This document shows positions 7,770 to 57,153 of a stretch of DNA of 64,000 nt, piece after piece. Origin of the DNA: an uncultured Pseudomonadota bacterium (GTDB lineage Bacteria > Pseudomonadota > Alphaproteobacteria > Rs-D84); NCBI GenBank assembly GCA_902802115.1, contig CADCKW010000001.1, positions 152,700 to 216,699 of the forward strand, read 5' to 3'. The position numbers and the translations under genes are program-made. Under the pieces are notes generated by a model. The model ran no database searches and was not told where the DNA came from. It saw nothing but the letters and a program-made list of their open reading frames with translations. Every line of letters starts with the position of its first letter. Position 1 is the stretch's first letter.

Positions 7770-7847
7770 ATAGATGCGCCGTTGTTTGCGAGCGTAGTGT
7801 ACGTGCGGCTACATGAGCGAGCAAACAACAAGCAGATATTCTATTAT
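7770..7847. repeat. ~78-nt structured repeat, family D copy 2
   Basis: atagatgcgccgttgtttgcgagcgtagtgtac...acatgagcgagcaaacaacaagcagata. Confidence 0.85.
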
Positions 7848-9418
7848 ATTTCGATATATTTCCCATCAATCAAATTCTGTTTGACCACATAATGCTTAAC
7901 CTTTTGCGTCGATGTCATCGGCAAATCATCGGTTGTCATTGCCATATGCGTCACCCATTTATATTTGGCAACGCGTTTATTCGCCTCGGCAACGGCATGC
8001 GACAGTTTTTCTGCGGTCATACCCTCTTCCACACTAAACACACCGTATGCAACCGTTTTACCTTGGACAACATGTTCAAAAACCGCAACATTTTTGACAC
8101 CTGGAATATCTAAAAACAGTGCCTCTAATTCATCTGGATAAACATTTTTGCCACTATCTAAAACAATCACTTGTTTTTTACGACCGGCAAAATGCAATTC
8201 ACCATTTTTATCCATATAGACCAAATCCCCTGTTTTGAAAAATCCACGTTCGTCAAAAGATTCTTTGTTGGCTTCGTCATTGTTCAAATAACCACCAAAC
8301 ACCTGGTGACCACGAACCCATAACATACCAATACCATTTTCATCTTTATCACGAATTTCGCATTCATTATTTCCCAATGGCGCACCAAACGCGTATGGTA
8401 TGCGCTTTTTCACCGGGCGCGAACCACAAAACGGCCCAACGGTTTCGGTCATACCATAACCTTGAATAAATGCGATACCCAAATCATTATAGAATTTTTC
8501 AACCTCTGGCTTGGTTGCCGCCCCGCCCGCAATCATCAACTGAACACGACCGCCAAATACAGCCTTGATTTGTTTTTGCACATTACGCACAATGAATCCC
8601 AGACCGATTTTCTGCAACCATTTTTGGTTTTTCAATATAAAAGAAACAATCCACCATTTTTTCTGGGATTTAATTTCTTCTATAATTTTTTTGCGGAACA
8701 ATTCCCACATTTTAGGCACAGATGGAATCACATGAGGTTTAAATTCTTTGAAATCCGCCAAAATCAATTTTGGATTTATTGATGATTGCAACAAAATACC
8801 CATTTGAAAATGCAGTGGTGCCAAAAATCCCGCAGCAAAACCAAAGATATGATACAGCGGTAAAAAACCATATAACACCCCACCCGGTTCAAACCATTGA
8901 TTAAAATCATCAAAAGAATTTGCACACTCTATCAAATTAAAATGTGTCAGTGGCACAATCTTTGGTGCGCCTGTTGAACCCGATGTAAATGACAATGTTG
9001 CAATATCATTTGCGTTTAATGGGTATGGTTCTAAATCTTCATCTGTTTCTGTGTCCTGGGTTTGAATATCAAAAAATTTAAAACCCGCTGCATCATAGAA
9101 AAAAGATTTTTCCGCCGCGACCAATTTGCATTGGGTAAGTTTCGTCATATTATCATATTCAGTTGGTGTTAAATTTGTATCCAACAACAACACGCGCGCA
9201 CCACGATACCATGCGGCGAACAAAGTCACAATAAATTCTGGAATATTGTGCGCCAACACACCCAAAGTATCACCAAAACCAACGCCAATTTTTTTCAGTG
9301 TTGTTGCACGTGCCTTGATAAATTTTGGAAAATCTTCAAATGTTATTTTTTCGCGGACCAGGAAAAGTGTCTTTGGACACTTTTCCACAGTCTGTTCAAA
9401 GAATTGGTACATATTCAT
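7844..9418 (-). CDS. AMP-binding long-chain acyl-CoA/acyl-ACP ligase, paralog 3
   Basis: FTSGSTGAPK, GYGMTET, FKTGD, GRKK..IVLDSGKNVYP, LPMTSTQKVK. Confidence 0.93.
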   Translation of the reverse strand: MNMYQFFEQTVEKCPKTLFLVREKITFEDFPKFIKARATTLKKIGVGFGDTLGVLAHNIPEFIVTLFAAWYRGARVLLLDTNLTPTEYDNMTKLTQCKLVAAEKSFFYDAAGFKFFDIQTQDTETDEDLEPYPLNANDIATLSFTSGSTGAPKIVPLTHFNLIECANSFDDFNQWFEPGGVLYGFLPLYHIFGFAAGFLAPLHFQMGILLQSSINPKLILADFKEFKPHVIPSVPKMWELFRKKIIEEIKSQKKWWIVSFILKNQKWLQKIGLGFIVRNVQKQIKAVFGGRVQLMIAGGAATKPEVEKFYNDLGIAFIQGYGMTETVGPFCGSRPVKKRIPYAFGAPLGNNECEIRDKDENGIGMLWVRGHQVFGGYLNNDEANKESFDERGFFKTGDLVYMDKNGELHFAGRKKQVIVLDSGKNVYPDELEALFLDIPGVKNVAVFEHVVQGKTVAYGVFSVEEGMTAEKLSHAVAEANKRVAKYKWVTHMAMTTDDLPMTSTQKVKHYVVKQNLIDGKYIEI

Positions 9419-9421
9419 AAT

Positions 9422-11002
9422 TTAAATACCCTTTTCTTGATATTTACCATCGATTAAATATTGACGAACGACATGATGTTTAACCTTTTGTGTTGATGTC
9501 AAAGGCAAATCGTCTGTTGTCATCGCGAAATGGGTCACCCATTTATAAGAAGCAACTTTTTTATTTTTTTCCGCGATTGCCTTTGCCAATTTTTCCATGG
9601 TCATATCACTATCCACAGAAAACACACCATATGCGACAGTTTTACCATTAACCTCGTGTTCGAAAACCGCCACATTTTTAACCCCAGGTATTTCGATAAA
9701 CAAACCTTCCAATTCATCTGGATAAACATTTTTACCGCTATCCAAAACGATGACTTGTTTTTTACGACCTGCGAAATGGAATTCACCGTTTTTATCGCAT
9801 GACACCAAATCGCCTGTGCAGAAAAATCCGTCTTTATCGAAACTTTCTTTATTGGCCGCGTCGTTATTCAAATATCCACCAAACACCTGTTTTCCTTTGA
9901 CCCACAACATACCAATACCGTTTTCGTCTTTGCTGCGGATTTCACAGCAATTTTCACCCAGTGGTGCGCCGAACGCATATGGCACACGTTTTTTTACAGG
10001 TTTAGAACAACAGATTGGTCCAACTGTTTCGGTCATACCATAACCTTGAACAAATGCCATACCTAAATTGTTATAAAAGTTTTCAACCTCTGGTTTTGTT
10101 GCGGCACCACCGGCGACCAAACAGCGCACACGACCACCGAACACCGAACGAATTTGATTCAAAACTTTATCAACCAATTTGCCCATTCCCAGCATACGCA
10201 AAGTTTTTTGATGATTCATAATAAATGATACCAACCACCATTTTTTCTTTGCTTTGACATTATCGACAATCTTTTTACGGAAAATTTCAAACACCTTTGG
10301 CACAGCCGGAATAACATGTGGTTTATATGTTGCAAAATCTTGCAATATTGCATTTGGGTTGATTGTTGATTGCAACAAAACACTCATACCAAAATGCAAA
10401 GGTGCCAAAAATCCAACTGCAAAACCAAACACATGATATAATGGTAAAAATCCATACATCATTTCACCATGGCGCAAGAAAATACTTAAACTTTCCAAAC
10501 TTTCCGAACAAGAAACCAAATTTTCATGCGTTAATGGCACAATTTTTGGGGTACCTGTTGAACCAGATGTAAATGACAGTGTTGCAATATCTTTGTCTTT
10601 TAATTTATAAGCCTTCAAAGATTCACCATCATCTTTATCTTTGGCCTGGATATCCAAAAACTTAAAGTTTTTTGTTTTATAAAAGAAAGATTTTTCTGCA
10701 ACAACAAATTTACAATCTGTGCGTTCAGTCATATTATCGTATTCAATTGGTGTTAAATTTGTATCCAATAATAATACCGTTCCACCAACATACCAAATTG
10801 CAAACAAAGTATAAATAAATTCAGGGATATTATGTGATAACAAACCAACTGTATCTCCTGGCTTTATCCCAGATGCAATCAACGATGCCGCACGTGCCTT
10901 GATAAACTTTGGCAATTGCGAAAAAGTAATATTTTCACGAACCAAAAAAACCATATCTGGATTTTTTGCTATATTCTGTTTTAACAATTCAATCATTGTC
11001 AT
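9422..11002 (-). CDS. AMP-binding long-chain acyl-CoA/acyl-ACP ligase, paralog 2
   Basis: FTSGSTGTPK, GYGMTET, FCTGD, LPLTSTQKVK. Confidence 0.93.
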   Translation of the reverse strand: MTMIELLKQNIAKNPDMVFLVRENITFSQLPKFIKARAASLIASGIKPGDTVGLLSHNIPEFIYTLFAIWYVGGTVLLLDTNLTPIEYDNMTERTDCKFVVAEKSFFYKTKNFKFLDIQAKDKDDGESLKAYKLKDKDIATLSFTSGSTGTPKIVPLTHENLVSCSESLESLSIFLRHGEMMYGFLPLYHVFGFAVGFLAPLHFGMSVLLQSTINPNAILQDFATYKPHVIPAVPKVFEIFRKKIVDNVKAKKKWWLVSFIMNHQKTLRMLGMGKLVDKVLNQIRSVFGGRVRCLVAGGAATKPEVENFYNNLGMAFVQGYGMTETVGPICCSKPVKKRVPYAFGAPLGENCCEIRSKDENGIGMLWVKGKQVFGGYLNNDAANKESFDKDGFFCTGDLVSCDKNGEFHFAGRKKQVIVLDSGKNVYPDELEGLFIEIPGVKNVAVFEHEVNGKTVAYGVFSVDSDMTMEKLAKAIAEKNKKVASYKWVTHFAMTTDDLPLTSTQKVKHHVVRQYLIDGKYQEKGI

Positions 11003-11033
11003 TTTTTATGTCCTTTATTTATAAATGAATAAA

Positions 11034-12614
11034 TTATTCATGTCTGTCAGGATATTTACCATCGATTAAATTTTTCCGCACAATATGATGCTTAATTTTT
11101 TGCGTACTGGTCACAGGTAAATCTTCTGTTGTCATCGCAAAATGGGTCACCCATTTATACGATGCAACTTTTTTATTTGCCTCGGCAACTGCATCTGCCA
11201 ACCTGTCCATTGTCATACCAGGTTCGACACTAAACACACCGTATGCAACGGTTTTATCTTTTACCTTGTGTTCAAACACCGCAACATTTTTTACACCCGG
11301 GATATCTAAAAACATGGCTTCTAATTCATCTGGATAAACATTTTTACCGCTATCCAAAACAATTACTTGTTTTTTGCGACCGGCAAAATGCAACTCACCA
11401 TTTTTATCCATATATACCATATCGCCAGTATTAAAGAACCCTTTGTCATCAAATGCTTCTTTGTTTGCCGCATCATTATTCAAATACCCACCAAACACCT
11501 GATGACCACGCAACCACAAAACACCAATGCCATTTTCGTCTTTATCGCGAATTTCGCATTCGTTATTTGTTGTCGGGCCACCCACAGAAAACGCCATACG
11601 TTTTTTATTTGGTTTTGAAATACAGATTGGTCCAACAGTTTCTGTTAAACCATAACCTTGAATAAATGCCAAACCCAAACTTTCATAGAAAGTTTCAACC
11701 TCTGGCTTGGTTGCGGCACCACCTGCAATCAACAACCTGACCCGTCCGCCGAAAATATCCAAAATAGGTTCTTGGACTTTGCGCACAAAAAATCCCAATC
11801 CCATATCGGTAATGCGTTCGCGATTGCGTAAAATAAATTCCACAATGCGCCACTTTTTTTGTGCCTTCAAAGTATCCATAATCTTATTTCTAAATAATTC
11901 CCACAAACGCGGTACAGCCGGAATAACATGCGGACGGAATTTTTTAAAATCGTCCATAATGTATTTTGGATTAACAGTTGGCTGTAAAACAATACCCGCC
12001 CCAAAATGCACAGTTGCCAAAATACCGATGGAAAAACCGAATATATGATACAAAGGCAAAAATCCATACATAACATCGCCTGAACCAAAATATTCAGCCA
12101 TATCTTCCAACGAATTTGCACACTCTGTTAAATTATAGTGTGTTAATGGCACGACCTTTGGACTGCCGGTTGAACCAGATGTAAAAGACAAAGTTGCAAT
12201 ATCACTGTCTTTGAATTCATACGGGCGCAACATTGGATTTGGCATACCGTCATTTGCGGTAATATCAATAAATTTAAACACATCTGTTTTATAGAAAAAT
12301 GACAATTCTGCAAAAACAAATTTACAATTTGCAATCGTCGCCATATTGTCATATTCAAACGGTGTTAAATTTGTATCCAACATCAATGCGCGCGCACCAA
12401 TATACCATATTGCGAACAATGTCAGCGGAAATTGAGGAATATTATGTGACAACACACCAACTGTATCACCGGCCTTGATGCCATGTTCCATCAGTGTCAC
12501 CGCACGTGCGCGAACCATTTCCATAAATTTTGAATACGTAATCCCTTCACGTACCAGAAACAGATTTTCCGGCCATTGCTGAACCGCTGTTTCTAACATA
12601 GTATTCATACTCAT
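11034..12614 (-). CDS. AMP-binding long-chain acyl-CoA/acyl-ACP ligase, paralog 1
   Basis: FTSGSTGSPK, GYGLTET, FNTGD, LPVTSTQKIK. Confidence 0.93.
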   Translation of the reverse strand: MSMNTMLETAVQQWPENLFLVREGITYSKFMEMVRARAVTLMEHGIKAGDTVGVLSHNIPQFPLTLFAIWYIGARALMLDTNLTPFEYDNMATIANCKFVFAELSFFYKTDVFKFIDITANDGMPNPMLRPYEFKDSDIATLSFTSGSTGSPKVVPLTHYNLTECANSLEDMAEYFGSGDVMYGFLPLYHIFGFSIGILATVHFGAGIVLQPTVNPKYIMDDFKKFRPHVIPAVPRLWELFRNKIMDTLKAQKKWRIVEFILRNRERITDMGLGFFVRKVQEPILDIFGGRVRLLIAGGAATKPEVETFYESLGLAFIQGYGLTETVGPICISKPNKKRMAFSVGGPTTNNECEIRDKDENGIGVLWLRGHQVFGGYLNNDAANKEAFDDKGFFNTGDMVYMDKNGELHFAGRKKQVIVLDSGKNVYPDELEAMFLDIPGVKNVAVFEHKVKDKTVAYGVFSVEPGMTMDRLADAVAEANKKVASYKWVTHFAMTTEDLPVTSTQKIKHHIVRKNLIDGKYPDRHE

Positions 12615-26122: not shown

Positions 26123-27436
26123 TTAATTATTTAATAAATCACGCACATCGTCACCAACCAACAAAGCCTCGCCTGATTTTGGTTTAACATCATCAACAAT
26201 AGACACCAAACGCGGCGACATAAACACAACCAATTCTGCAAACGGACTAATCAATGTTTCTGGGGTTGTCACAAAAGAATGTGTAGGAATACCAACAATA
26301 ACATAATTATCACCAACACTGGACGGGATATTAAACGAAGTTAATTCACCATATTTTGTTGTTAAGACTATTTTGGCATCTATCTTTTGATAACCGCCAT
26401 AATCACCATAACGACCCGTTGCCCCAATAACTAAATCTGTTTCCAATCTATCTTCTTTACTGCATTGACCGATATCAAATCGTGATTGCCAACCATTTGG
26501 AATCGAAAAAGTCCCTTGTGAAATCAATACAACATTTGATTGTTGTGCCAAAAATTCTTGCAAAGTTTTTGTATTTATTTCCGGTCCCACAACCAACGCA
26601 CGACCAACAACACCCGGTATAGACATTTTAATATTATTTTTTCCAAACGCAGGCAACAAATTCATCCATATAATTGGATTATCTGTTTTTGGATAAACAC
26701 GATACACGTCCATATCCCATGCAATCATATATTTTTTAGACGCAATATCCGCAATAATTCTGGATACTTCGCGTTCTGTTTGCGCATCGCCTTCGAACAC
26801 GACGGTTTTATCTTGCCAATTTACCAACAAATTACGCACATCTGCGCCATGCATCGCGTCCAACAAAGCCATAATTATAGATTCATCTTTTGGCATTTTA
26901 ATCATCCATTTCGCGCGGTGTTGCAAATGAATCTCGGCTGTCACTGCATCATACGAATAATATGCGCGTCCCATTTTTGCAATCAAATCAACCGTATCCG
27001 CCAAAGTTCCGGATTGAACCTCGCCTGAAATTTTTTCAACCAATTGTTCATCTGCAACAACGGACACATCTGTTCCGTCCAATAATTTATTTAATGCAGA
27101 TGCCACTGTCACATCTTTAAATTTATATTCACTGACCGTCAATTCAGGCAACGCATCACCCAATCCCAATCGCACAATTTCAATTTTTTCCGCCGGCACA
27201 ACCGACACAACCGATTGATTATTCCAATCAACTGTGCAACGCATAGGCAATTCCACAGAAAACCTTTGCGCCGTATCTGTCGTCAAAGCGGCTTTTTTTG
27301 GAAATATTGGCACAGACTTTTCATCTATGACCATATTTTCAACAACCTGGACTGTTTCATATTGTGGAACATTTTTTGCGTTTTGACACCCTGCACACAC
27401 AAAGACCGTCAAAGCATACAATAAAAAACGTTTCAT
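26123..27436 (-). CDS. Lipoprotein, putative PilN/BfpB-type secretin
   Basis: FVCAGC lipobox, STN/N-domain-like segment (DVTVASALNKLL...SGTLADTVDLIA), C-terminal ELVVFMSPRLV resembling the secretin ELVIxITPRI. Confidence 0.55.
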   Translation of the reverse strand: MKRFLLYALTVFVCAGCQNAKNVPQYETVQVVENMVIDEKSVPIFPKKAALTTDTAQRFSVELPMRCTVDWNNQSVVSVVPAEKIEIVRLGLGDALPELTVSEYKFKDVTVASALNKLLDGTDVSVVADEQLVEKISGEVQSGTLADTVDLIAKMGRAYYSYDAVTAEIHLQHRAKWMIKMPKDESIIMALLDAMHGADVRNLLVNWQDKTVVFEGDAQTEREVSRIIADIASKKYMIAWDMDVYRVYPKTDNPIIWMNLLPAFGKNNIKMSIPGVVGRALVVGPEINTKTLQEFLAQQSNVVLISQGTFSIPNGWQSRFDIGQCSKEDRLETDLVIGATGRYGDYGGYQKIDAKIVLTTKYGELTSFNIPSSVGDNYVIVGIPTHSFVTTPETLISPFAELVVFMSPRLVSIVDDVKPKSGEALLVGDDVRDLLNN

Positions 27437-27467: not shown

Positions 27468-27833
27468 TTATATGTTCATAATTTTTTCAAACTCTTCCAA
27501 AGTCATTTCATAAATTGGTTTTTCTGTTGGTGTGACTAAATCTTTCATACCTTCGAATTTTTCTTGAAACACCTTTATCACGCGCGCAACATCATTTGGC
27601 ACAGGCCCCGCCTGTTCTAAACGACGCGCATATTCCAAAATATATTCCAATGTATCTGCGACAAAGAATCGACCGACATAATTTTCCATCGCTATTCCGC
27701 CTTTTTCCACACAAATTGCAGACATAGTCACCAACATTTGGTTATAAAAATTAGCCAATTTGATAAAATTTTGAACAGATATCGCCATAACTTGTTCCCT
27801 TCCTCTTTTTTTCATTATAAAAACTATTGCCAC
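27468..27833 (-). CDS. Hypothetical protein (probable start 27788)
   Basis: ORF fills the gap and does not overlap known genes. Confidence 0.65.
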   Translation of the reverse strand: MAIVFIMKKRGREQVMAISVQNFIKLANFYNQMLVTMSAICVEKGGIAMENYVGRFFVADTLEYILEYARRLEQAGPVPNDVARVIKVFQEKFEGMKDLVTPTEKPIYEMTLEEFEKIMNI

Positions 27834-27862
27834 CCTAACGCAAATGTTTTATAATATAAAAC

Positions 27863-28243
27863 ATGAAAATCAAATACCTGGCATTATTATTGGCTTTAAC
27901 ATCATGTGCATCGGCAAATCGTGGCAATATTGACGATGCAACAATTTTAAATTGGGAAAATGATGCTGTCACAACCGAACAATTTGTTCGCGACCACAAA
28001 TCTTGCCTGGGATTAAAAACGAACAATTATACACCGCGTTCGCGTATTGCGCGCCTGTTATCACCGAACCAAAACGACCAAATGCCTGATTGGGACGGAA
28101 TCTGGGTCACATTTCAATCAAATGAATACAGGGACGTTGGACAACGCGCATTAATGTCTGTTCCACGCAACCAGGCATCAAAAACCGTTGGTGCATACCG
28201 CCGTTGCATGATGCGTCGCGGATACTTGCTGCGTGCAATGTAA
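27863..28243 (+). CDS. Hypothetical lipoprotein
   Basis: LALLLALTSC lipobox; DHKSC...YRRCMMRRGY. Confidence 0.8.
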   Translation: MKIKYLALLLALTSCASANRGNIDDATILNWENDAVTTEQFVRDHKSCLGLKTNNYTPRSRIARLLSPNQNDQMPDWDGIWVTFQSNEYRDVGQRALMSVPRNQASKTVGAYRRCMMRRGYLLRAM

Positions 28244-28288: not shown

Positions 28289-28984
28289 ATGCCAAACATG
28301 AGGCGTTCAATCTGGTTTTGGTTATCTTTCTGTGCCGCCATTGTTTTGGCGATATACTTTATATCGCGAACAATTATGATTGGTCTGGGACATGGAGATA
28401 TGGCACATGTGCATAAAATATCTTTTACCGCTGATGTTGAAAACAAAGACATGACCGCATTGGTCGGCGCGGTATCAATCCCAAAAAGCACACCTTTTTA
28501 TTCCATAGACCTAGATTCTTTGACCAATAATTTAAAGGCAATACCAAATGTTCGCGATGCCGCGGTTCGCAGATTACCCAACAGTACTATCCGCGCGCGT
28601 GTATCATATTATCATGTTGTGGCGGCATGGACTGATGGCGAATATTATTTCCCTGTGTCCGACGATGGAAAAATTGTTCAAAATCCAACTGCCGAACGTC
28701 CTGAATCCGCATTACTGTTTCGTGGTTATATTCCCGAAGGCATGGATTTAACAGAAATTACAAATGCCGCAAATGACATGGCGGCTGACATTGATTATAT
28801 CGAACGCATTGAAAATCGTCGTTGGAATATACAAACAAATACAGGCATCACAATTAAATTACCCGAAGACGACTTTGCACACGCAATTGCTAATTTAATA
28901 ACAATAAATAAAAATCATAATATATTAAATCGTGACATAAGTGTAATTGATATGCGCGATGAATCGAGAATATTGGTTAAATAA
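28289..28984 (+). CDS. ftsQ: Cell division protein FtsQ/DivIB
   Basis: N-terminal TM, POTRA (IPNVRDAAVRRLP), ENRRWNI, IKLPE, VIDMR. Directly upstream of ftsA. Confidence 0.88.
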   Translation: MPNMRRSIWFWLSFCAAIVLAIYFISRTIMIGLGHGDMAHVHKISFTADVENKDMTALVGAVSIPKSTPFYSIDLDSLTNNLKAIPNVRDAAVRRLPNSTIRARVSYYHVVAAWTDGEYYFPVSDDGKIVQNPTAERPESALLFRGYIPEGMDLTEITNAANDMAADIDYIERIENRRWNIQTNTGITIKLPEDDFAHAIANLITINKNHNILNRDISVIDMRDESRILVK

Positions 28985-28987: not shown

Positions 28988-30766
28988 ATGAATTTATTTG
29001 ATTCTTGTTTTTTATGCCTTGATATCGGGACCAGTTGTGTTCGCGGCATTGCGCATCGTGTATGTTCTGGCAAGATTGCAAAATCTGCAACCGCCATGTG
29101 CGACAGTTTTAATCCAGAATTTGCCGTTCGTGTTGTTATTGATAAACTGGAACACGAACTGGGGACACATTTTGAAAACGCATATGTGACTGGAAATTTT
29201 GGAAAATCTATTTTTTTACGCCAACCCCAAACAACCGTATGGAACACCGAACACAAAATCACAGACGCCGATATTCGCAGCCAGATTTCAAAACTACGTA
29301 TGCCAGACGGATATACTGGAATTCATTTAATTCCTGTTCAATATGATATTCCAACGGCACGCAAAATCGCAACCCCTGTTGGCTGTATCGACAGGGCTTT
29401 GGTTTCAACATTTGGTATTATATGTTATGAAAACGACAGATTGGCTGAAATTGTATCAATTTTAAACAAGGCACATATTCAATATAACGGTCTGTTTGAC
29501 CCTGGATATGTCCAAAACATGACATTACGCAAATCTGGTCAAACAATATTATTTATTGATATGGGGGCCGAATTTACATCTTGTTCAATATGGAACGACA
29601 ACGGTGTATGTTGGCATGAAAAATTACCAGCCGGCATGTCAAATGTCACAATGAAATTAATGGACGGATTACACATAGATTTTGACGAAGCCGAAAGAAT
29701 AAAACGCATGGTTGCAACATTGATTCCGCGCGCCATGGACAGACTTGCACCTGCGGATACGGCATATGATTTTTCACGTGGCGACGTAAATGACATTGTT
29801 GTTCCAACTGTGGTTGATATAATTGGTAAATTAAAAGATTTATGTATCACACCAATAAATGAATTTATGCCAACAAAAATAATAATCAGTGGTGGTGGCA
29901 CCGCAATAACCGGGGTTGTTGATTTTATTGGCAACGCGTTTGGATTACCGATTGAAAATTACCACACCGACGCGACAATATCTGCACTGTCAAATTATAT
30001 TTGGAAATCCCAAGAACCTGAACGCAAATTATATCTGGAAAAACAAGAACGCCGCACAGCAATTATAAATAAAATTAAAAACATTTTTATCAAGAAACAC
30101 AAAACACAAAAACCAAAATTTATTCCAATTGCCCCATCAACATTGTGTTTTAATATGTTCCGCGCATCAACATATAAACTTTTTGAATCCGCGGACATAT
30201 CGACAATTCATGTTGATATAATGGACGGATTATACGTTGATAAAATTGCTGGTGGAATCCCAGAATTAAAAACAATTCGCGCAAACACACATGCACATTT
30301 ACATGTTCATTTAATGGTTCAAAATCCATCTATTTGGGCGGCGAACGCAATTCGCGCCGGCGCAGATACAATAATTTTGGAATGTAATACACCGGGTGTA
30401 TTATCGGCATTACGCGAAATACGCGCAACCGGTCGTCGCGCCGCAATTGCAATCAACCCAGACACACCAATTGGTGAAATGGCAAAATATTTACGCGATG
30501 TTGATGAATTTCTAATTATGGCTGTTGCACCTGGTGCCGCGGGACAAAAATTTGATACAAATGTTTTACAGAAAATTTCTGCATTATCAACAACACGCAA
30601 AAAACATGGATTAAAATATATAATATCTGTTGATGGTGGAATAAACGACATAACCGCACAAAAATGTTGGGCCGCCGGTGCAGATTTCTTGGTCAGTGGT
30701 TCTTATCTGGCATCCGCACCTGATTTCACAATGGCGGTCCAAAGTTTATTAAAAAAACAAAACTAA
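28988..30766 (+). CDS. ftsA-rpe: FtsA fused in frame to ribulose-phosphate 3-epimerase
   Basis: FtsA part: LDIGTS.V, FIDMGA, DFDEAERIKR, ISGGGT. Rpe part from about base 30120: IAPS, IHVDIMDG, HVHLMV, GQKF, VDGGIN, GAD.LVSGS. One uninterrupted 592-aa ORF. Confidence 0.9.
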   Translation: MNLFDSCFLCLDIGTSCVRGIAHRVCSGKIAKSATAMCDSFNPEFAVRVVIDKLEHELGTHFENAYVTGNFGKSIFLRQPQTTVWNTEHKITDADIRSQISKLRMPDGYTGIHLIPVQYDIPTARKIATPVGCIDRALVSTFGIICYENDRLAEIVSILNKAHIQYNGLFDPGYVQNMTLRKSGQTILFIDMGAEFTSCSIWNDNGVCWHEKLPAGMSNVTMKLMDGLHIDFDEAERIKRMVATLIPRAMDRLAPADTAYDFSRGDVNDIVVPTVVDIIGKLKDLCITPINEFMPTKIIISGGGTAITGVVDFIGNAFGLPIENYHTDATISALSNYIWKSQEPERKLYLEKQERRTAIINKIKNIFIKKHKTQKPKFIPIAPSTLCFNMFRASTYKLFESADISTIHVDIMDGLYVDKIAGGIPELKTIRANTHAHLHVHLMVQNPSIWAANAIRAGADTIILECNTPGVLSALREIRATGRRAAIAINPDTPIGEMAKYLRDVDEFLIMAVAPGAAGQKFDTNVLQKISALSTTRKKHGLKYIISVDGGINDITAQKCWAAGADFLVSGSYLASAPDFTMAVQSLLKKQN

Positions 30767-31180
30767 TTATTTGATTTCAATTTTTCGTCCGCCATTACAG
30801 CAATCTGCACCACACGATGAAATATAAATATGAATAGTATCTTTGGGCAACAATCCCATTGCAACATCTGGCCACTCTATCAAAGTAATATCATGTTGCA
30901 CCGCATACGGCAAACCAACCTCGACCAATTCGCTTGCATCTGTAATTCTGTATAAATCGAAATGAGAAATTCCATCATAACTTTGCACAATGGTAAAAGT
31001 CGGGCTTGGCACCACAGTATTTTCACCGCGCAATGTTTTAATAATTGTTCGTGCAATTTCACTTTTTCCCATACCCAAATCACCATGCAACGCAACAGTC
31101 ACCGGTGCGTGCAAACTTTTTGCAAATTCGCGCGCCCATTTATGTGTGGCATCTAAATCAGGTAAGATAACTTCTTGCAT
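30767..31180 (-). CDS. tsaE: t6A biosynthesis ATPase TsaE
   Basis: LHGDLGMGKS, VPSPTFTIVQSY, HFDLYR, LIEWP. Confidence 0.95.
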   Translation of the reverse strand: MQEVILPDLDATHKWAREFAKSLHAPVTVALHGDLGMGKSEIARTIIKTLRGENTVVPSPTFTIVQSYDGISHFDLYRITDASELVEVGLPYAVQHDITLIEWPDVAMGLLPKDTIHIYISSCGADCCNGGRKIEIK

Positions 31181-48113: not shown

Positions 48114-49220
48114 CTACGATAACATCATAGTAATTTGGTCTTGCATTTGGAAAGTCGCCAACACAACCCACGCAATAATAACAGACACCAATAAAATACC
48201 AACACTGTTTAATGTTGATGATACAGAATCCATTTTACGCACAGAATTAGCCAAATAATCATTGGCCACACGCGAAACATTTTCGCCAAAATCGTTCATT
48301 TCAGAATATATGGTTAAATCGCCGATAATTTCATCGTTTGGAAATTCGCGCCCTGTTTTATCCAACGCAACCCCTAAATTATCACCATTTGCAATATATT
48401 GCAAAGTATTTTCCAAAATATCGCGCAAATATCTGTTTGAATTATCCGCCAAAGTCCGCATTGCATCTGGCACCGCAACACCCGCACGCACCATTGCCGA
48501 CAAAGACATCATCCACCCAACCGACACATACATTTTATAAATACTCCATGGTGGCAAAACATCAAACAAAGTCCGCAAACCCCCACGCCAATTTGCCAAA
48601 CTTGCCCAAACCAAGAAAATAACAACCAACATAAATCCAACAATAACATGCCAATAATTTATACAAAACTGTGACACACTAATTAAAATCCCAGCGGCAC
48701 CACCAAACACAACATTTGGACCCGCAACCGATGTCAATGGTGGCACCAAATACACACCAACCATAACAATAATACCAAATGTCAAAGCCAACAAAAACAA
48801 AGGATACGCGATTGCGTTGCGCATTGCGCGTTTAATTTTTGTAATACCATTTACCACCCTATCCAGATTTTCCAACGAAATAACCAAATCTGTCACATTT
48901 GCAGACGTCACCAACAAAATTTCGGAATCAGGCAACCAACCACGCGTAGAATCCGCAAAACTAAGTCCCATTTCCAGATTTTTTTGCCACATACGCATTG
49001 CAATAGCAAACGGTTCATCGGGTTTTCGTCCATTTTTAGATTCAATATCTTCTATACGACTCAACGCGTCCATCAAAGAAAAATTATTGCGCAACAACGA
49101 CGCCAATTTTCGTATCAGCGCCAATCGTCTGTCGGTATTCAATTTGAACACCATTTTTGCATATAAAATTTCTAATTTTTCCATGCGTTTAATATTCCCC
49201 TGGTCTGTCCAGTAATCCAA
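48114..49220 (-). CDS. Type II secretion F / PilR-BfpE inner-membrane platform protein (probable start 49184)
   Basis: LASLLRNNFSL.DAL, AIAYP, three TM segments, second T2SSF repeat (L..MVRAGV). Confidence 0.88.
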   Translation of the reverse strand: MDYWTDQGNIKRMEKLEILYAKMVFKLNTDRRLALIRKLASLLRNNFSLMDALSRIEDIESKNGRKPDEPFAIAMRMWQKNLEMGLSFADSTRGWLPDSEILLVTSANVTDLVISLENLDRVVNGITKIKRAMRNAIAYPLFLLALTFGIIVMVGVYLVPPLTSVAGPNVVFGGAAGILISVSQFCINYWHVIVGFMLVVIFLVWASLANWRGGLRTLFDVLPPWSIYKMYVSVGWMMSLSAMVRAGVAVPDAMRTLADNSNRYLRDILENTLQYIANGDNLGVALDKTGREFPNDEIIGDLTIYSEMNDFGENVSRVANDYLANSVRKMDSVSSTLNSVGILLVSVIIAWVVLATFQMQDQITMMLS

Positions 49221-50811
49221 CCCAACGTTCTAATTCATCGACACCAATGATACCACGCAACATTAATTCCGCCGCAGATTCCTTTAATGTGCGTCCGTCC
49301 ATTTCTTCCAACCAATATTTAACCGCCATATCGGTATTTCCTGCCAATGCAATCCGTAAAAACTCACTGTTTGTGATAATGATTTCACCAGCCTTGATAC
49401 GACCAATAGTGCCTGAACCATTACACTCGCTGCAACCTGGTCCTTTGATAAAGACTTGTTTTAATCCAATTTCGCCAAACGCGTCCATCACGCGTGAATA
49501 TGCCGAATGTTCTGGGTGATTTGATAAAGCCTCGCGACAATGCGGACACAGTTTTTTAAACAAACGCATAGACACCAAACCACGCATTAATGTTTCGTCT
49601 TTTAATTTAAAACTTTCAATTCCCATATCCAACAATCGTGTCAAAGCCGCCATTGCAGAATTCGCATGCAAAGTCGTCCAAACATTATGTCCCGACAATG
49701 CACCACGCACCGTTAATTGCGCCGCCGCCAAAGTCCTGATTTCACCAACCATCAATGTATCCGGGTCACTACGCAATGCCGCCGCCAAAGCCTCGGTATA
49801 TTTTTCATCGCGTTGTTCTTCGTTCATAGCATTTACGACCGGCATTTGATGTGCGCCAAATATTTTTTGTTCAACTGGATTTTCCACAGTAATCATATTT
49901 ATTTCATAATTGCGTTCTTTTAACATCATCGACATATTGCGAACCAATGTTGTTGATTTACCTGATGATGTAGGTCCCGCAACAATAACCAATCCGGTTG
50001 GATACGCACGCAAACGCATTAACAACCTTTGTTCATATTCACCAAATTCTTGTTCTGTTTTGATACCTTCGGACGGATTATCATACAACAATCGCATAAC
50101 AACATAACGTGTTCCATATGCGATTGGATTAAATTGCATACGAATACTGGTGACACCTGCTGGCAAATACAAATCGCGGGTTCCACGCAAAGGTGTTCGA
50201 CCATCTTTTTGTGCTGATTGATATTCATTTTGTGCATAGTTAGAATTTGAAATATCCGCCGACGCAAAAGCCGCCCTAACAAAAGATTCCCCCCAACCCG
50301 AATTATATTCCAACACAGGTTGCATACTGCCATCTATACGGAAATAAATTGTTGTCTGGTCAGCCACCTCGATATGCACATCACTAACCTTTTGTGCGGC
50401 CGCACGCGCGATAATATCGACAAAATCTTTTTGCATTTGGTTGTCGAAATCATTTCTTTGACGCGCCCCAGAACCCAATCTTTCTTCGTATGTTTTATAT
50501 ATCGCCGACACCAAACCCAAATCGGAATAAAACGGTTCCCGATAATTCATACCGCGTTCGCGCAACAAATCCAAAAAAGCCAACACACGCCCATCGTATT
50601 TATGCGTCCGCGAAATAATAATCTCGCCCCCAGAAAAATACGCAATCAAACTCTGGACATCTTTGGATAATTCCATTTTTGCCCCAGTTGCCGTCAATAA
50701 ACGATTACCATTAGAAAACAAATAATCAATGATTTCTTTTATTTCGGCACCTTCCATGCCGGCTGGCACAGACGGTTTTAATGCGGTTAAATTTTCTGTA
50801 TCTTTACTCAT
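49189..50811 (-). CDS. GspE/PilB-family assembly ATPase (PilQ/BfpD-like)
   Basis: SDVHIE, FRIDG, GPTSSGKSTTL, TVENPVE, LRSDPD.LMVGEIR, GH.V.TTLHAN, CPHC...CSEC. Confidence 0.93.
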   Translation of the reverse strand: MSKDTENLTALKPSVPAGMEGAEIKEIIDYLFSNGNRLLTATGAKMELSKDVQSLIAYFSGGEIIISRTHKYDGRVLAFLDLLRERGMNYREPFYSDLGLVSAIYKTYEERLGSGARQRNDFDNQMQKDFVDIIARAAAQKVSDVHIEVADQTTIYFRIDGSMQPVLEYNSGWGESFVRAAFASADISNSNYAQNEYQSAQKDGRTPLRGTRDLYLPAGVTSIRMQFNPIAYGTRYVVMRLLYDNPSEGIKTEQEFGEYEQRLLMRLRAYPTGLVIVAGPTSSGKSTTLVRNMSMMLKERNYEINMITVENPVEQKIFGAHQMPVVNAMNEEQRDEKYTEALAAALRSDPDTLMVGEIRTLAAAQLTVRGALSGHNVWTTLHANSAMAALTRLLDMGIESFKLKDETLMRGLVSMRLFKKLCPHCREALSNHPEHSAYSRVMDAFGEIGLKQVFIKGPGCSECNGSGTIGRIKAGEIIITNSEFLRIALAGNTDMAVKYWLEEMDGRTLKESAAELMLRGIIGVDELERWVGLLDRPGEY

Positions 50812-50815
50812 TTTA

Positions 50816-51562
50816 TTACCGACTTGATATATTTAAATTTTGTGTTTCACCATCTTTACTAAACACAACACCATCTTCCAATGATATAGATTTCACAACA
50901 AAACCGTCGATTTTTTTACCAACCGTCACGCGTTTTGTTTGCCCTGTTTCCAAATCAGACAATGTTGCCTGCAATTGATTACCCGCACCCATAACATTTA
51001 CCAATTTATACAAAGAAGAAATATCAACCCAATCTTCATCTTGATTTTCTTCCACTATGGGTTTCTTTTTTGCCGATTGAGATTTTTTTGCAGAATTCGT
51101 TGCAACCGGTGCCGCATATGTTTCATTTTCAGCCGCCGCAATCAAAGCCTTTTTCTCTGCCTCTATACGCGCAGCCTCGGCTTCCAATTTTGCTTTTTCA
51201 TTTTGTAAAATCTGCTGTTCTTGTTCTGCGCGTCCAGATAGCGTGTCCATTTCCATTTGCAGTTTGATTTTTTCAGCCGCCAATCTATCCAAATCCAAAT
51301 CCAATTGTGCGCGTTCTTTTTCCAATTCCATTAAAACTTTTTGCTGTTCTAAATCTGTAATTTTTTGAAATACAGACCCATCAACATCATAACTCGCAAC
51401 AGACATAGCCGACAAATCATCTGCGGCATCATTGGTTAAATAATCATAAGAATCTTCTTCAACCAAATTTTCGAAATCATCGTCCGCATACGACATAACC
51501 GGCATAGAAAACACCGCAAACAAACCGAACAACAAACCAAACAATTTAATTTTATTTTGCAT
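50816..51562 (-). CDS. PilP-like type IVb pilus biogenesis protein
   Basis: Signal peptide, coiled coil, C-terminal beta domain (VNVMGAGNQLQATL...GFVVKSIS.DGV). Lies between PilO2 and the ATPase. Confidence 0.7.
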   Translation of the reverse strand: MQNKIKLFGLLFGLFAVFSMPVMSYADDDFENLVEEDSYDYLTNDAADDLSAMSVASYDVDGSVFQKITDLEQQKVLMELEKERAQLDLDLDRLAAEKIKLQMEMDTLSGRAEQEQQILQNEKAKLEAEAARIEAEKKALIAAAENETYAAPVATNSAKKSQSAKKKPIVEENQDEDWVDISSLYKLVNVMGAGNQLQATLSDLETGQTKRVTVGKKIDGFVVKSISLEDGVVFSKDGETQNLNISSR

Positions 51563-52874
51563 AGATTATAACCTCATAGTTCCAATTGCGTGATATTGCA
51601 TTCCACGCGCAACGCGTGACATAAACACCACCAAAATCTTCAAACATTTTTGTAAATTGCATTGGCAATAATTTTGAACTCACTGCAATTTCTACAATGT
51701 TTAATTTTGCTGTATCAACACCATTTGTTAATGTATCAACAACAATCTTTGTTTTTGCGTCCATGTGCGCCGTTTGAAACAAACTGACAACATTGCGTTC
51801 AATTGTTTCAGCATCGCGTTCGTCCAAAGACGCCACATGTTCAATATTTGGCAAAGCAACACTAACACTCAAAGTATTGTCATCTATTTCAACAACACTC
51901 GCCCCAGGTAAAAAATCCGCCGCCACAGAATAAAAACCGTCTAATGATCCAAATTTTCTGTTAAATTCTGCCGTTGCGCGTGTTTCATCACAAACAACAT
52001 TTGATTGTGACCAACCGGTCACAGGCTGCATCAAAAATCCAATTGCCTGATAGCATTGTTTTGCACGCGCAACCGGTTCTGGCAAATTAGTATATGGCAA
52101 AACCAGCGGTTCGACTTCTGTTTTTTGAATATCAAATTCTGCATCTAACTCTTTATTTTTTTCTTCGACCTGACGTTTATATTCCGCAACTAATTCAGGG
52201 TCCAATTCAACTTTTTTTGGCGCAGTAATTTTATTGATTGGTTCGCGAAATATAAAATACAACGCACCAAAGAAAATCAAAAACAAAACCGCAGAAAACA
52301 CAACAGGCGCCCAACGACTGATTGCGCGCAAATTATATTTTGTTTTGCGTGGCAACAAAGTATTCAAATCGCGTGCAGATGCGCGTGGTATTCCCCATGA
52401 ATTCGGCGCAATAAATGCGGTCCAATCTGGAATCTTTGAAAATTTGGCATATTCTGCGCGCGCATCGGCCTCGTCACTGTATAATTTATCAGCCAAAATA
52501 ATACCATTACGCACAGCCAACAAATAATATTTTTTATCAACAATAAAAACCGCCAAAAATGAAGAATACTCGGACAAAGTATCAACAATTTCTGCGGCAG
52601 CCGATGGCATACCTGCATAAAATCCACGATGTTTTGGTGCCAAACCAACCATGGACCGATATTCAACAAATAAATTTGCTTTAACCTTGGAATTTTTTGT
52701 TAAAACGCGCGCATAATTTTTTGCACTGTACCCAACCGCAACCGGTTGCCAAAACAACCCAGCGGCAAAACGTTTTTTATTTACATGCAACAAATTAGAC
52801 AATGTTTTATCACCAAACCCGAACAATTTGTTGAATAAAAAACTGAAAAAAGCGCCTATAACCGTATCTAACAA
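51552..52874 (-). CDS. Type IVb pilus protein PilO2
   Basis: KRFAAGLFWQ, YYLLAVRNG.IL.D, central TM, CYQAI...GW...C. Confidence 0.75.
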   Translation of the reverse strand: MLDTVIGAFFSFLFNKLFGFGDKTLSNLLHVNKKRFAAGLFWQPVAVGYSAKNYARVLTKNSKVKANLFVEYRSMVGLAPKHRGFYAGMPSAAAEIVDTLSEYSSFLAVFIVDKKYYLLAVRNGIILADKLYSDEADARAEYAKFSKIPDWTAFIAPNSWGIPRASARDLNTLLPRKTKYNLRAISRWAPVVFSAVLFLIFFGALYFIFREPINKITAPKKVELDPELVAEYKRQVEEKNKELDAEFDIQKTEVEPLVLPYTNLPEPVARAKQCYQAIGFLMQPVTGWSQSNVVCDETRATAEFNRKFGSLDGFYSVAADFLPGASVVEIDDNTLSVSVALPNIEHVASLDERDAETIERNVVSLFQTAHMDAKTKIVVDTLTNGVDTAKLNIVEIAVSSKLLPMQFTKMFEDFGGVYVTRCAWNAISRNWNYEVIIYAK

Positions 52875-53354: not shown

Positions 53355-54293
53355 TCACTTTTCAACAATTTCGTAATTTTCTGGGTCGCTAAACAATTTT
53401 CTTAAAACCAGATTATTTAACGCATGACTACCTTTATATGACACCAAATCACCAACAATAATTCCCCCAGATAAAAACATATCACCCAACGCATCTATTA
53501 CTTTGTGACGAACAAACTCATTTTCCCAATACAGATTATTTAATACACCGTCACCTTTGGCATTAACAACGATAACATTATGTTCATTTGCACCATGTGC
53601 CATACCATGCTTTTTTAAAACTTCCCACTCTGAAATTTTTCCAAAAGTGCGTGCATGTGCAACATTTTTAATAAAATTATTTTGTGATTTTTTTGTGCCA
53701 TCAAACAAATAAGAAAAACTTTGGTCACCAATAATTTTTTCAGGATAAACCAATGTCGCCGTCACATTTAAACCACGACCATCATTTGGCATCAACTTTA
53801 CAAAACCACTGGTTTTTCGCCCAGCCAGTTTATTTATAATCCAAAATTTTAACCTTTCAATTCTAGAAATATTTTTCTTGGCCTCTGCCGATGTCACAAC
53901 AACTTCGCGTTTAACAATTATGCGTTTTAATTTTTTTCCAACAACCCCAACAGACAAAAATTTTTCCATAAATTCAGCCGCACTACCGTCCAGTATCGGT
54001 GTTTCTGGACCATCTATTTCAACGATTGCACTATCAACACCAACCAACATCAACGCAGCCATAAAATGTTCAATTGTTTGGACATGTGGCGCACCCATAT
54101 TTCCAATTGTGGTATTACGCATTTTTGTTTCACCAACATTTGAATATATGGCGGGTATATCGAACTTTTTATCCAAATCCACACGATGAAAAACTATTCC
54201 TGGGACCTTGGACGGTTTAATAACCATTGTGACAGGTTTTCCACTGTGAATACCATGACCCGAAATAGAAAATTTTTTCTTAAAAGTTGCCAT
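53355..54293 (-). CDS. lpxC: UDP-3-O-acyl-GlcNAc deacetylase
   Basis: GHGIHSG, TIEHFMAAL, ETPILDGSA, ARTFG, RHKVIDALGD, GSHALN. Confidence 0.95.
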   Translation of the reverse strand: MATFKKKFSISGHGIHSGKPVTMVIKPSKVPGIVFHRVDLDKKFDIPAIYSNVGETKMRNTTIGNMGAPHVQTIEHFMAALMLVGVDSAIVEIDGPETPILDGSAAEFMEKFLSVGVVGKKLKRIIVKREVVVTSAEAKKNISRIERLKFWIINKLAGRKTSGFVKLMPNDGRGLNVTATLVYPEKIIGDQSFSYLFDGTKKSQNNFIKNVAHARTFGKISEWEVLKKHGMAHGANEHNVIVVNAKGDGVLNNLYWENEFVRHKVIDALGDMFLSGGIIVGDLVSYKGSHALNNLVLRKLFSDPENYEIVEK

Positions 54294-55200
54294 TTAATTT
54301 TTCCTCTAACCAGTTAAAGAACATTTTATCAATCTTGGTATCTAATCTTGCAAACTTGATTTCATCACGCACATTTTGTGGCAACCTTACCCAGTCTTTT
54401 TCAGTTGTCACCAACTTTGCATTTTTTTTATCTGCCAAATTTAATAAATCTTTGATATCTTGTTCTGTATATTGATAATGGTCAGCATAAGATTTTTTAT
54501 AAACAACATTTTTTAATTGTTGAAAGAATTTTTCAGGATATCCAATTCCCGCAAACGCAACCAATTTTTCATCTTCATCATATGGCGATAAGGTTGTATT
54601 TTCTGCATAAAATACCGGGATATTTGCCGGCAATTTTAAATCAGGTAATTTTATATTTTTTTTATTTGCACGCACAATAATAATTGCATCAGCCCGCATT
54701 AACCCAGACCGCCCTTCGCGCATAGGACCCGCAGGCAACAAAAAACCATTACCAAAACCCAAAGCCTCGTCAATAACAACCACAGAAATATCTTTATTTA
54801 TTGACAGGTTTTGAAATCCATCGTCCATAACAATTGGTGTATTTGATTTTTGTTTATTTAATAAAACAATATTACTTTTTCTGTCGCCTGTATGAACATT
54901 TAAACCATATCGCGCCAACATCAAAGCCTCGTCACCAACACCATTTGTCTTGTTTGATTTTTTATAACCACGCATAACAACGGGCGCATCTAAAAATTCA
55001 GCAATTTGACGAACAATCGGTGTTTTACCAACACCACCCGCCAAAATATTACCAACACAAATAATTTTACGACGCGATATATATGGATTTTTTGCGCGAT
55101 GCCGCATTATTAATTTATTAGCCAACCAATACAGCCCCGACATTGGCAACAAAGCCAACGCAAGTGCAGATTTATGCAAAAACCAATAAGGTGTTTTCAT
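54280..55200 (-). CDS. lpxK: Tetraacyldisaccharide 4'-kinase
   Basis: CVGNILAGGVGKTP, RGY, GDEALML, MDDGFQN, LPAGPMRE, AFAGIGYPEKFF, TTEKD. Confidence 0.96.
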   Translation of the reverse strand: MKTPYWFLHKSALALALLPMSGLYWLANKLIMRHRAKNPYISRRKIICVGNILAGGVGKTPIVRQIAEFLDAPVVMRGYKKSNKTNGVGDEALMLARYGLNVHTGDRKSNIVLLNKQKSNTPIVMDDGFQNLSINKDISVVVIDEALGFGNGFLLPAGPMREGRSGLMRADAIIIVRANKKNIKLPDLKLPANIPVFYAENTTLSPYDEDEKLVAFAGIGYPEKFFQQLKNVVYKKSYADHYQYTEQDIKDLLNLADKKNAKLVTTEKDWVRLPQNVRDEIKFARLDTKIDKMFFNWLEEKLNGNF

Positions 55201-55994: not shown

Positions 55995-56111
55995 TAAAAA
56001 TTCACAGGAATCTTAGCAATAATAAAAATACAATGCAAGGGACAAAAGCCCTAAAAAACACTAACAAACGGTTTTAAGTGAAATTTTTTAAAAAAAACAT
56101 AGTGTTTTTTA

Positions 56112-56139
56112 TTGACATTTAATAAATTTAGTATATAAT
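56112..56139 (+). promoter_or_regulatory. Consensus sigma70 promoter for tRNA-fMet
   Basis: TTGACA - 16 bp - TATAAT. Confidence 0.85.
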
Positions 56140-56153
56140 AGACATTACGTTAT

Positions 56154-56230
<77 letters not shown>

Positions 56231-56968: not shown

Positions 56969-57153
56969 TATTTATCCTTTTTATGAATACTAAGATTATA
57001 TTCTAATATATTATTTCTTTCAATATTTAAACTTTCTTTTGCTTATTATTTTTTATATCTTTTCTCATTTTCTCAATATTTTTCCAAGATTTCTGCCTTT
57101 TCTTTTCTTTTTCTTTTCTCTTTTTTTCTTCTTTTTTACATTTTAAGAAAAGA

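Follow-up and report, generated by a model that had tools for sequence, protein, structure and literature searches.

Does the gene that follows ftsQ in this alphaproteobacterial genome encode a division protein, a metabolic enzyme, or both? We analysed 64,000 nucleotides (hereafter the window) of an uncultured member of the order Rs-D84 (assembly GCA_902802115.1, contig CADCKW010000001.1, positions 152,700 to 216,699), in which one open reading frame (ORF) joins the actin-like division protein FtsA to a ribulose-phosphate 3-epimerase (Rpe). The ftsA::rpe fusion is a real and conserved gene of single origin that is under purifying selection, and both folds and the catalytic residues are intact in the window protein. 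We assign a probability of about 0.55 to the reading that it encodes a bifunctional protein, produced by one gene fusion in a genome undergoing reduction, in which FtsA and FtsQ would act together at the membrane, to which an internal segment would tether an active Rpe. The two domains are both well known; what appears to be new is the architecture, in which the FtsA helix is internal, an enzyme of central metabolism is appended to it, and the arrangement extends across an order.

One reading frame for two domains

The fusion ORF starts 3 nucleotides past the ftsQ stop at 28984 and was listed as a single frame of 592 amino acids, as the original prediction of one ORF after ftsQ had it. Its parts are given below, with the source of each assignment in brackets.

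28988..30766, forward strand: ftsA::rpe fusion ORF, 592 aa (ORF listing, Pfam, NCBIfam, relatives, independent contigs)
28988..30010, forward strand: FtsA core, residues 1-341 (hidden Markov model (HMM), profile against PDB, Foldseek, conservation)
30014..30088, forward strand: predicted long helix, residues 343-367 (AlphaFold2 model)
30062-30097, forward strand: amphipathic basic segment IINKIKNIFIKK, residues 359-370 (hydrophobic moment, end of the predicted helix)
30089..30118, forward strand: polybasic flexible connector IKKHKTQKPK, residues 368-377 (AlphaFold2 model)
30119..30763, forward strand: ribulose-phosphate 3-epimerase (beta/alpha)8 barrel, residues 378-592 (Pfam, NCBIfam, alignment to 2FLI, Foldseek)

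A sequencing or assembly error that erased a stop codon or a frameshift between two genes, the danger to which the original prediction had pointed near the junction, is an explanation to which we give practically no credence. In four independent runs of gut metagenomes (bovine, sheep and two others), gap-free contigs extend over the full ORF and its junction, and they differ from it by substitutions only, with no insertions or deletions. Codon alignment of the window gene to five relatives (L082, L002, L014, L001 and L003) revealed no internal stops. The same fusion, for which a search of relatives had been proposed, is present at full length and in the same frame in 53 species-level genomes, identified by a scan of one genome per species, and in more than 120 fused protein clusters. 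Among 611 database matches, drawn from NCBI, ENA, JGI and Logan assemblies, the best 120 were all about 590 aa long and had the two Pfam domains, with identities from 95% to 54%. Three matches of odd length that might have represented unfused relatives (P0125, P0123 and P0121) were rejected as contig-end or frameshifted fragments of fused genes, and all complete members of this FtsA subfamily that were recovered are fused. Inspection of the A-rich linker for a programmed frameshift gave no in-frame X XXY YYZ heptamer, and this candidate was likewise discarded. The relatives, the codon alignment and the four runs together confirm that the FtsA-Rpe single-polypeptide gene is real and conserved.

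The two halves and the segment between them

On the basis of profile and structure comparisons, the N-terminal half is a member of the FtsA family, though not a curated equivalog. An HMM built from 105 canonical FtsAs matched the window ORF with an E-value of 3e-53, and a profile of the N-terminal half searched against the PDB recovered FtsA at 3e-28 to 8e-18, with PilM and MreB at ~1e-12. The Pfam FtsA domain (PF14450) spans residues 189-325 with 42.6 bits (gathering score 31.8), while SHS2_FTSA matches residues 84-142, weakly in the window protein and with 33-44 bits in distant fused members. In the AlphaFold2 model of the fusion, which has a mean predicted local distance difference test (pLDDT) score of 88.4, the confidence is high for each of the four FtsA subdomains. 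Its best Foldseek matches are FtsA structures (S. aureus, V. maritimus, T. maritima and E. coli; E ~1e-24 to 1e-20), for which the template modelling (TM) scores are 0.65-0.75 as against 0.59 for PilM, and the model has the actin/ASKHA fold with a 1C (SHS2) subdomain in place of 1B. Identity as PilM, for which the type IVb-pilus-like cluster in the window and a weak PilM_2 match might have spoken, was rejected in view of the much better scores against FtsA profiles and structures and of the gene's place after ftsQ. The core ends at about residue 341 (nucleotide ~30010), close to position 30003 where its end had been placed from the letters alone, and is approximately 45 residues shorter than canonical FtsA. 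The following elements of this half, all encoded on the forward strand, were located.

Residues 11-16: phosphate-1 motif LDIGTS, aligned to FtsA LDIGTA
Residues ~84-142: 1C/SHS2 subdomain (weak SHS2_FTSA match, AlphaFold2 model)
Residues 190-198: phosphate-2 motif IDMGAEFTS, aligned to DIGAGTMD (V. maritimus) and DIGGGTMD (E. coli)
Residues 250-264, nucleotides 29735-29779: conserved 2B loop MDRLAPADTAYDFSR (conservation profile)
Residues 301-304: adenosine motif SGGG, aligned to TGGA

Residues D12, G14, T15, D191, G193 and G302-304 align to the nucleotide motifs of FtsA, with nucleotide binding predicted on this basis, and these motifs are retained in approximately 63 of the 72 fused sequences. 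In the deep branches P0132, P0133, P0143, P0147 and P0148 the phosphate-1 DxG is lost, through replacement of either D12 or G14, with the Rpe half intact. The most conserved windows of the FtsA half are phosphate-1 (residues 6-20), the MDRLAPADTAYDFSR loop (250-264), residues 58-72 and phosphate-2 (189-203). Part of subdomain 2B (residues 243-263) is modelled with low confidence and yet is highly conserved; for the loop at 250-264 the pLDDT is ~57-75, and we regard this loop as a candidate partner-binding or filament interface, 2B being the subdomain with which FtsA binds the C-terminal peptide of FtsZ.

The C-terminal half is a complete Rpe barrel. Pfam Ribul_P_3_epim (PF00834) matches residues 381-574 with 150 bits, far over the threshold of 21, and the NCBIfam subfamily model NF004076 scores 179 bits against a cut-off of 165. 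The Rpe equivalog TIGR01163 reaches 159 bits, which is under its cut-off of 212.6, and the D-allulose-6-phosphate epimerase model scores well at 141 bits, so that the Rpe substrate is predicted rather than assigned by an equivalog match. The alignment of this half to S. pyogenes Rpe (2FLI) runs over its entire length, covering 2FLI residues 4-215 of 220, and Foldseek superposed the AlphaFold2 model of the half on 2FLI with a TM score of 0.91 and a root-mean-square deviation of 1.4 Å over 209 columns at 37% identity. All the metal ligands that had been read from the sequence as those of a complete Rpe align to 2FLI at the positions listed here and do not vary in relatives.

30209-30211, forward strand: metal ligand H408 (2FLI H34)
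30215-30217, forward strand: metal ligand and catalytic residue D410 (2FLI D36)
30308-30310, forward strand: metal ligand H441 (2FLI H67)
30632-30634, forward strand: metal ligand and catalytic residue D549 (2FLI D176)
Residues M412, M443 and M511: methionine cushions, invariant in relatives
Residues 515-520 (PGAAGQ) and 571-572 (GS): phosphate loops

The four ligands (H, D, H, D) are kept in 69 of the 72 fused sequences, the exceptions being L047, which is cut by a contig end, P0130 and P0134. There are two deviations from canonical Rpe, namely YVDK in place of FVPN (more generally YV(D/x)(K/x)) and PGAAGQ in place of PGFGGQ.

Between the two domains, the original prediction had noted an amphipathic basic segment resembling the membrane-targeting helix of FtsA, and such a segment, IINKIKNIFIKK, is indeed present at the end of the predicted helix. 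Its hydrophobic residues fall at i, i+1, i+4, i+7 and i+8, and its 11-residue hydrophobic moment is 0.61, compared with 0.65 in L069 and 0.68 in L057, where FtsA is unfused and its helix truly C-terminal; across the family the junction has a mean moment of 0.69 against a background mean of 0.54. The net charge of the linker (residues 346-377) is +10 in the window protein and +8 to +13 in every Enterousia-level sequence. Within the connector, residues 369-375 are disordered (pLDDT <50), and strand beta-1 of the barrel follows. In the distant members L050/P0149, P0141, P0164 and P0232 the linkers are short and have no amphipathic helix. Modest on its own, the amphipathic signal agrees, once charge and position are considered as well, with the retention of a membrane-targeting sequence.

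Carriers, origin, selection and neighbouring genes

The carriers are Candidatus Enterousia and other Rs-D84 metagenome-assembled genomes (MAGs) labelled "Alphaproteobacteria bacterium" or "Rickettsiales bacterium", from human, chicken, horse, ruminant, rabbit and termite guts. Enterousia has been assigned to the uncultured order Rs-D84, whose genomes of 0.75-1.0 Mb are devoid of respiration, of most biosynthetic routes and of some of glycolysis, keep MreB, RodA, MrdA and the non-oxidative pentose-phosphate pathway except transaldolase, and are predicted to make their owners dependent on partner organisms (PMC12306168).

When the FtsA half was searched against 1.84 billion representative proteins, the top ranks were almost all 550-623 aa long, down to 24-30% identity, and ordinary FtsAs of 390-450 aa started only at E ~1e-13 and ~25% identity. 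The distant long proteins from this search also end in an Rpe domain, and fusion to Rpe persists in representatives whose FtsA halves are only 24-31% identical. In a neighbour-joining analysis of 25 fused Rpe halves and the 27 nearest standalone Rpes, the fused halves formed one clan in 60/60 bootstraps, and this monophyly implies that the fusion arose once. These sequence comparisons indicate a single ancient fusion event that was not reversed in the sampled lineages.

Given this single origin, the surroundings of the standalone rpe genes bear on how the fusion came about. An ftsA gene lies within 10 kb in only two of the 27 nearest standalone-rpe loci, both from gut alphaproteobacterial MAGs, where the order is ftsQ, a canonical ftsA of 414-423 aa, an ABC exporter gene and rpe, and where ftsZ is not adjacent to ftsA either.

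L057:6128-10618: ftsQ-ftsA-ABC-rpe (gene order)
L069:6083-10591: ftsQ-ftsA-ABC-rpe (gene order)

Such a neighbourhood makes a deletion-driven fusion plausible in shrinking genomes. As a direct precursor of the fusion this gene order was rejected as unsupported, since a sister relationship of the Rpes of the two loci to the fused clade appeared in only 2/60 bootstraps; it stands as a parallel. The original prediction had also raised the question of a separate rpe or ftsA alongside the fusion; none was found within ±10 kb, which was the span covered.

To evaluate selection, we compared the ratios of nonsynonymous to synonymous substitution rates (dN/dS). Against the closest relative (95% amino acid identity, dS ~0.3) the ratio was lowest in Rpe (0.051), with 0.081 in the FtsA core and 0.118 in the linker; in more distant pairs the two domains gave 0.12-0.23 and the linker 0.33-0.58, the latter with saturated dS. 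Among 52 Enterousia-level sequences, the mean majority frequency was 0.78 for Rpe, 0.60-0.73 for the FtsA subdomains and 0.42-0.48 for the linker. Order-wide retention and strong purifying selection, as estimated from these alignments, show that both modules matter. Two lineages are degenerate. P0134 has YTHC for HDHD at the four Rpe ligand positions and SIAEG for DIGTS, and the Rpe ligands of P0130 are altered similarly. The P0134 gene lies in the exact orthologous slot (L084-L087; L084:10001-11770) and keeps an intact frame of 589 codons in at least 10 cluster members at a GC (guanine plus cytosine) content of 20%. Its dN/dS between members is 0.31-0.39, compared with 0.44 for its own ftsQ and 0.04 for its own uvrB, values that rest on small counts of 14-24 nonsynonymous and 10-17 synonymous differences per pair. 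Judging from these ratios, the P0134 ORF seems still to be constrained though neither half can be a normal enzyme, and it is this retention that chiefly hints at a structural, non-catalytic role, with a separate rpe elsewhere in the genome being possible.

The genes and sites around the fusion in the window are as follows.

27827..27855, forward strand: candidate operon promoter TTGCCA-17-TATAAT (11/12 match), the best sigma-70-like site, 5' of the lipoprotein gene
27863..28243, forward strand: 126-aa lipoprotein with lipobox LTSC, directly 5' of ftsQ, without a Pfam or NCBIfam match
28289..28984, forward strand: ftsQ, 231 aa (POTRA_1 and FtsQ_DivIB_C domains)
30767..31180, reverse strand: tsaE, convergent, the next gene after the fusion and followed by uvrB (domain scan)

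The promoter-like site suggests, from its sequence and position, an operon of the lipoprotein gene, ftsQ and the ftsA::rpe fusion; the overall count of promoter-like sites in the region is not above shuffle expectation, which makes this site a positional lead. The lipoprotein is 65-90% identical across Rs-D84 loci, a conservation that exceeds that of FtsQ or of the FtsA half, and it may be an uncharacterised division or envelope partner in the putative operon with ftsQ. Synteny is near-invariant: lolE, orf437, orf121 and the lipoprotein gene precede ftsQ and the fusion, the convergent tsaE and uvrB follow, and an AsmA-like gene comes next. The constant unit is ftsQ with the fusion, ftsQ preceding the fusion gene in 53/53 fused loci; tsaE is a conserved neighbour in most loci, and accB-accC take the place of the upstream genes in a few. 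The two genes between lolE and the ftsQ operon (26123-27436, reverse strand, 437 aa; 27468-27833, reverse strand, 121 aa) have no significant family match, only weak STN and DUF1722 matches, and are syntenic in nearly all Rs-D84 loci. At 30766/30767 the fusion stop codon abuts the tsaE stop codon with zero intergenic bases, which fits extreme genome compaction, and no terminator-like site lies between the two convergent stop codons.

In agreement with the original prediction, ftsZ does not follow the fusion. The tubulin signature GGGTG[ST]G is absent from the whole window and from within ±10 kb of the fusion in 83 related loci (L001-L083); of the division and cell wall (dcw) order ftsQ-ftsA-ftsZ, only the first step is present, with ftsQ directly upstream and no ftsZ found over these spans.

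The remainder of the window is free of divisome and pentose-phosphate genes and holds housekeeping genes, lpxC-lpxK, a type II secretion system (T2SS)/type IVb-pilus-like cluster and a low-GC stretch. Three tandem paralogous ORFs of ~525 aa lie at 7844-12614 on the reverse strand, of which the two that were scanned are AMP-binding proteins (acyl/aryl-CoA ligase-like); this is an unusual repeat for a genome of less than 1 Mb. The T2SSF, T2SSE and PilO-like genes of the pilus/T2SS-like cluster (48114-52874 and 53355-55200, both reverse strand) lie beside lpxC-lpxK, and lpxC is not linked to ftsZ here, in contrast to many Proteobacteria. An integrated mobile element may occupy 56000-64000, where the GC content is ~0.30, compared with ~0.38 elsewhere, and where a Schlafen AlbA_2/HATPase_c_4 protein (57154-58848) and a VirB4/TrbE-like ATPase (60070-62493) are encoded.

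Readings of the fusion and comparison with known systems

Based on these observations, the fusion would have become fixed a single time, in the ancestor of Rs-D84 (Ca. Enterousia and relatives), a gut order with reduced genomes; its most likely cause is the loss, during genome shrinkage, of the stop codon and spacer that separated ftsA from an rpe gene downstream of it. In the lineage of the window both modules would keep their ancestral jobs. The FtsA module, actin-like and predicted to bind nucleotide, would sit on the inner face of the membrane and work with FtsQ in division, and residues 343-377 would be a remnant of the FtsA membrane-targeting tail that still holds the protein on the membrane. 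Since the barrel begins only ~10 residues past the helix, Rpe would be held at the membrane beside FtsA, where it would interconvert ribulose-5-phosphate and xylulose-5-phosphate; its co-localisation with the divisome would be a by-product of the fusion and not its purpose.

Several observations weigh against this bifunctional, membrane-tethered protein. The FtsA half scores 81 bits with the NCBIfam FtsA equivalog TIGR01174, far under the cut-off of 176, and its phosphate-2 loop is atypical, with GAEF and not GGGT; a GAE-type phosphate-2 loop occurs in ATP-binding PilM proteins, which offers a lead only. The hydrophobic moment of 0.61 in the window protein lies inside the upper background range (95th percentile 0.79), and an internal amphipathic helix with a 215-residue domain after it may not insert like a free C-terminal one. 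Junction-spanning RNA was not detected, the RNA matches consisting of a few short low-depth contigs of which none crossed the junction. The ftsZ gene is not adjacent to the fusion, the standalone Rpes of L057 and L069 do not group as sisters of the fused ones, which leaves the precursor order unproven, and the retention of a full-length ORF in P0134 and P0130 after loss of catalytic residues from both halves is awkward for two independent enzymes.

The original prediction offered either a physical link between pentose-phosphate metabolism and the divisome or an Rpe that hitch-hikes on the membrane; the covalent fusion stands, and the evidence does not tell coupling from hitch-hiking. A neutral fusion in the course of genome reduction explains the retention and the purifying selection equally well. 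The alternative that the Rpe barrel is integral to the FtsA machine, in a structural or metabolite-sensing role, is one that we entertain tentatively. Rpe oligomerisation might cross-link or space FtsA filaments, or a pentose-phosphate sensor might tune FtsA assembly, which would tie division to sugar-phosphate supply in a partner-dependent bacterium. Such coupling would agree with the lack of fission in the 72 sampled fused sequences at divergence down to ~25% identity, with purifying selection on the linker (dN/dS 0.12), the length and charge of which are conserved in the Enterousia-level clade, and with the maintenance of the P0134/P0130 ORF in its orthologous slot despite loss of the Rpe metal ligands and of the FtsA DxG motif (dN/dS 0.31-0.39, below 1) at a 20% GC content where stops arise easily. 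Elsewhere, enzymes are known to regulate FtsZ (GdhZ, KidO, UgtP and OpgH). Furthermore, E. coli rpe mutants and other pentose-phosphate mutants are altered in cell size (PMC5825171). However, AlphaFold2 gives no confident packing between the domains (predicted TM score 0.59, disordered connector), fusions are generally lost less easily than gained, so that retention alone says little, the dN/dS values of the degenerate lineage derive from only 14-24 substitutions per pair, and the short linkers of the distant members show that the geometry is not strictly conserved. A stronger form of this idea, which we consider doubtful, would make the Rpe barrel an obligatory structural or regulatory module of the divisome anchor, either a hub that bundles FtsA or a switch of assembly gated by pentose phosphates, and one so fixed that P0134 and P0130 keep the fusion after losing both epimerase catalysis and nucleotide binding by FtsA. 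If true, this would be the first division module in which a metabolic enzyme is covalently part of FtsA, and the lineage would possibly be unusual towards FtsZ.

That only the Rpe half matters, with FtsA a decayed relic serving at most as a membrane or oligomerisation anchor and other proteins dividing the cell, appears unlikely. The identity of ~25% to canonical FtsA, the score under the equivalog cut-off, the deep branches that have lost the phosphate-1 Asp but kept Rpe, the database name, which is that of Rpe only, and the absence of a nearby ftsZ over the spans given above are all in its favour. Nevertheless, the FtsA core evolves at a dN/dS of 0.08, its ATP motifs and the 2B surface loop are its most conserved parts, all four subdomains are confidently modelled, and the gene is always immediately 3' of ftsQ. 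A second FtsA-like gene was absent from every locus scanned, the sole second match to the FtsA HMM (in L019) being rejected as MreB at 464 bits. Still less do we expect that the one ORF yields two proteins, a normal FtsA and a free Rpe, whether through proteolysis within the basic linker or through translation from an internal start. Disorder and a high Lys content would make the connector (residues 369-375) accessible to proteases, and cleavage there would recreate the canonical FtsA C-terminus; no conserved cleavage motif is evident, as the linker sequence is variable. Met is absent from residues 346-389, and the first one, M390, lies inside the barrel past beta-1, so that initiation there would truncate Rpe and a separately initiated full-length enzyme is improbable.

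Fused proteins appear in databases only as "ribulose-phosphate 3-epimerase" or "hypothetical protein". These names hide the FtsA half, and automated surveys will therefore score Rs-D84 genomes as lacking FtsA. Full-text literature searches combining FtsA, Rpe and fusion returned nothing relevant, papers on Enterousia and Rs-D84 do not mention the fusion, and PMC12306168 is also silent on FtsA and FtsZ. The fusion is apparently undescribed so far, which agrees with the original prediction, to whose author no description was known.

The bacterial division ring is held to the membrane chiefly by FtsA, for whose working a free C-terminal helix is regarded as essential. A whole order that buried this helix in mid-protein, hung a central-metabolism enzyme on it and kept the arrangement through very deep divergence is of interest in either case. 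If the coupling is only physical, the fusion would be a natural experiment, indicating that FtsA tolerates a bulky, probably oligomeric cargo by the membrane and that binding to it may need no more than an amphipathic helix in an internal position. If it is functional, pentose-phosphate metabolism and cell division would be hard-wired to each other in minimal, partner-dependent gut bacteria. The real possibility of functional neutrality limits its interest for cell-division specialists.

Compared with canonical FtsAs (E. coli, T. maritima, S. aureus and V. maritimus; PDB 7Q6D, 1E4G/4A2A, 3WQT and 7Q6F), the fusion shares the actin-like fold with the FtsA-specific 1C/SHS2 subdomain, the DxGT, DxG and GGG motifs, the gene position straight after ftsQ and a predicted basic amphipathic helix past the core. 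It differs in a core of ~345 instead of ~390 aa, in an identity of ~25% by sequence and 13-15% by structural alignment, in having GAEF rather than GGGT, in an internal helix with a 215-aa enzyme after it, in the lack of an adjacent ftsZ and in a score below the NCBIfam equivalog cut-off. With Rpes (S. pyogenes 2FLI, potato 1RPX and human 3OVP) it has in common the full (beta/alpha)8 barrel, the H/D/H/D ligands with the acid/base pair, the Met cushions and the phosphate loops. Unlike these enzymes, it bears 377 N-terminal residues of FtsA and linker, has YV(D/x)(K/x) and PGAAGQ for FVPN and PGFGGQ, falls below the TIGR01163 cut-off, and belongs to the separate clan of fused halves. The closest approach in gene order, in L057 and L069, resembles the fusion in that ftsA and rpe have the same orientation, lie within 2 kb of each other and have no adjacent ftsZ, and in that the FtsA there ends in an amphipathic helix, FGKIRKFINDNF, like that of the fusion junction; in contrast, the genes are separate, with the ABC gene between them, and the Rpe has the canonical FVPN and PGFGGQ and does not group as a sister of the fused ones (2/60). 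Finally, separate metabolic enzymes regulate FtsZ in other bacteria, namely GdhZ and KidO in Caulobacter, UgtP in B. subtilis and OpgH in E. coli. The fusion would resemble those systems in bringing an enzyme of central metabolism, or a protein homologous to one, into physical contact with the division machinery. Whereas GdhZ, KidO, UgtP and OpgH are separate gene products that bind FtsZ reversibly, the link in the fusion is covalent and is made to FtsA, and a regulatory effect would be hypothetical.

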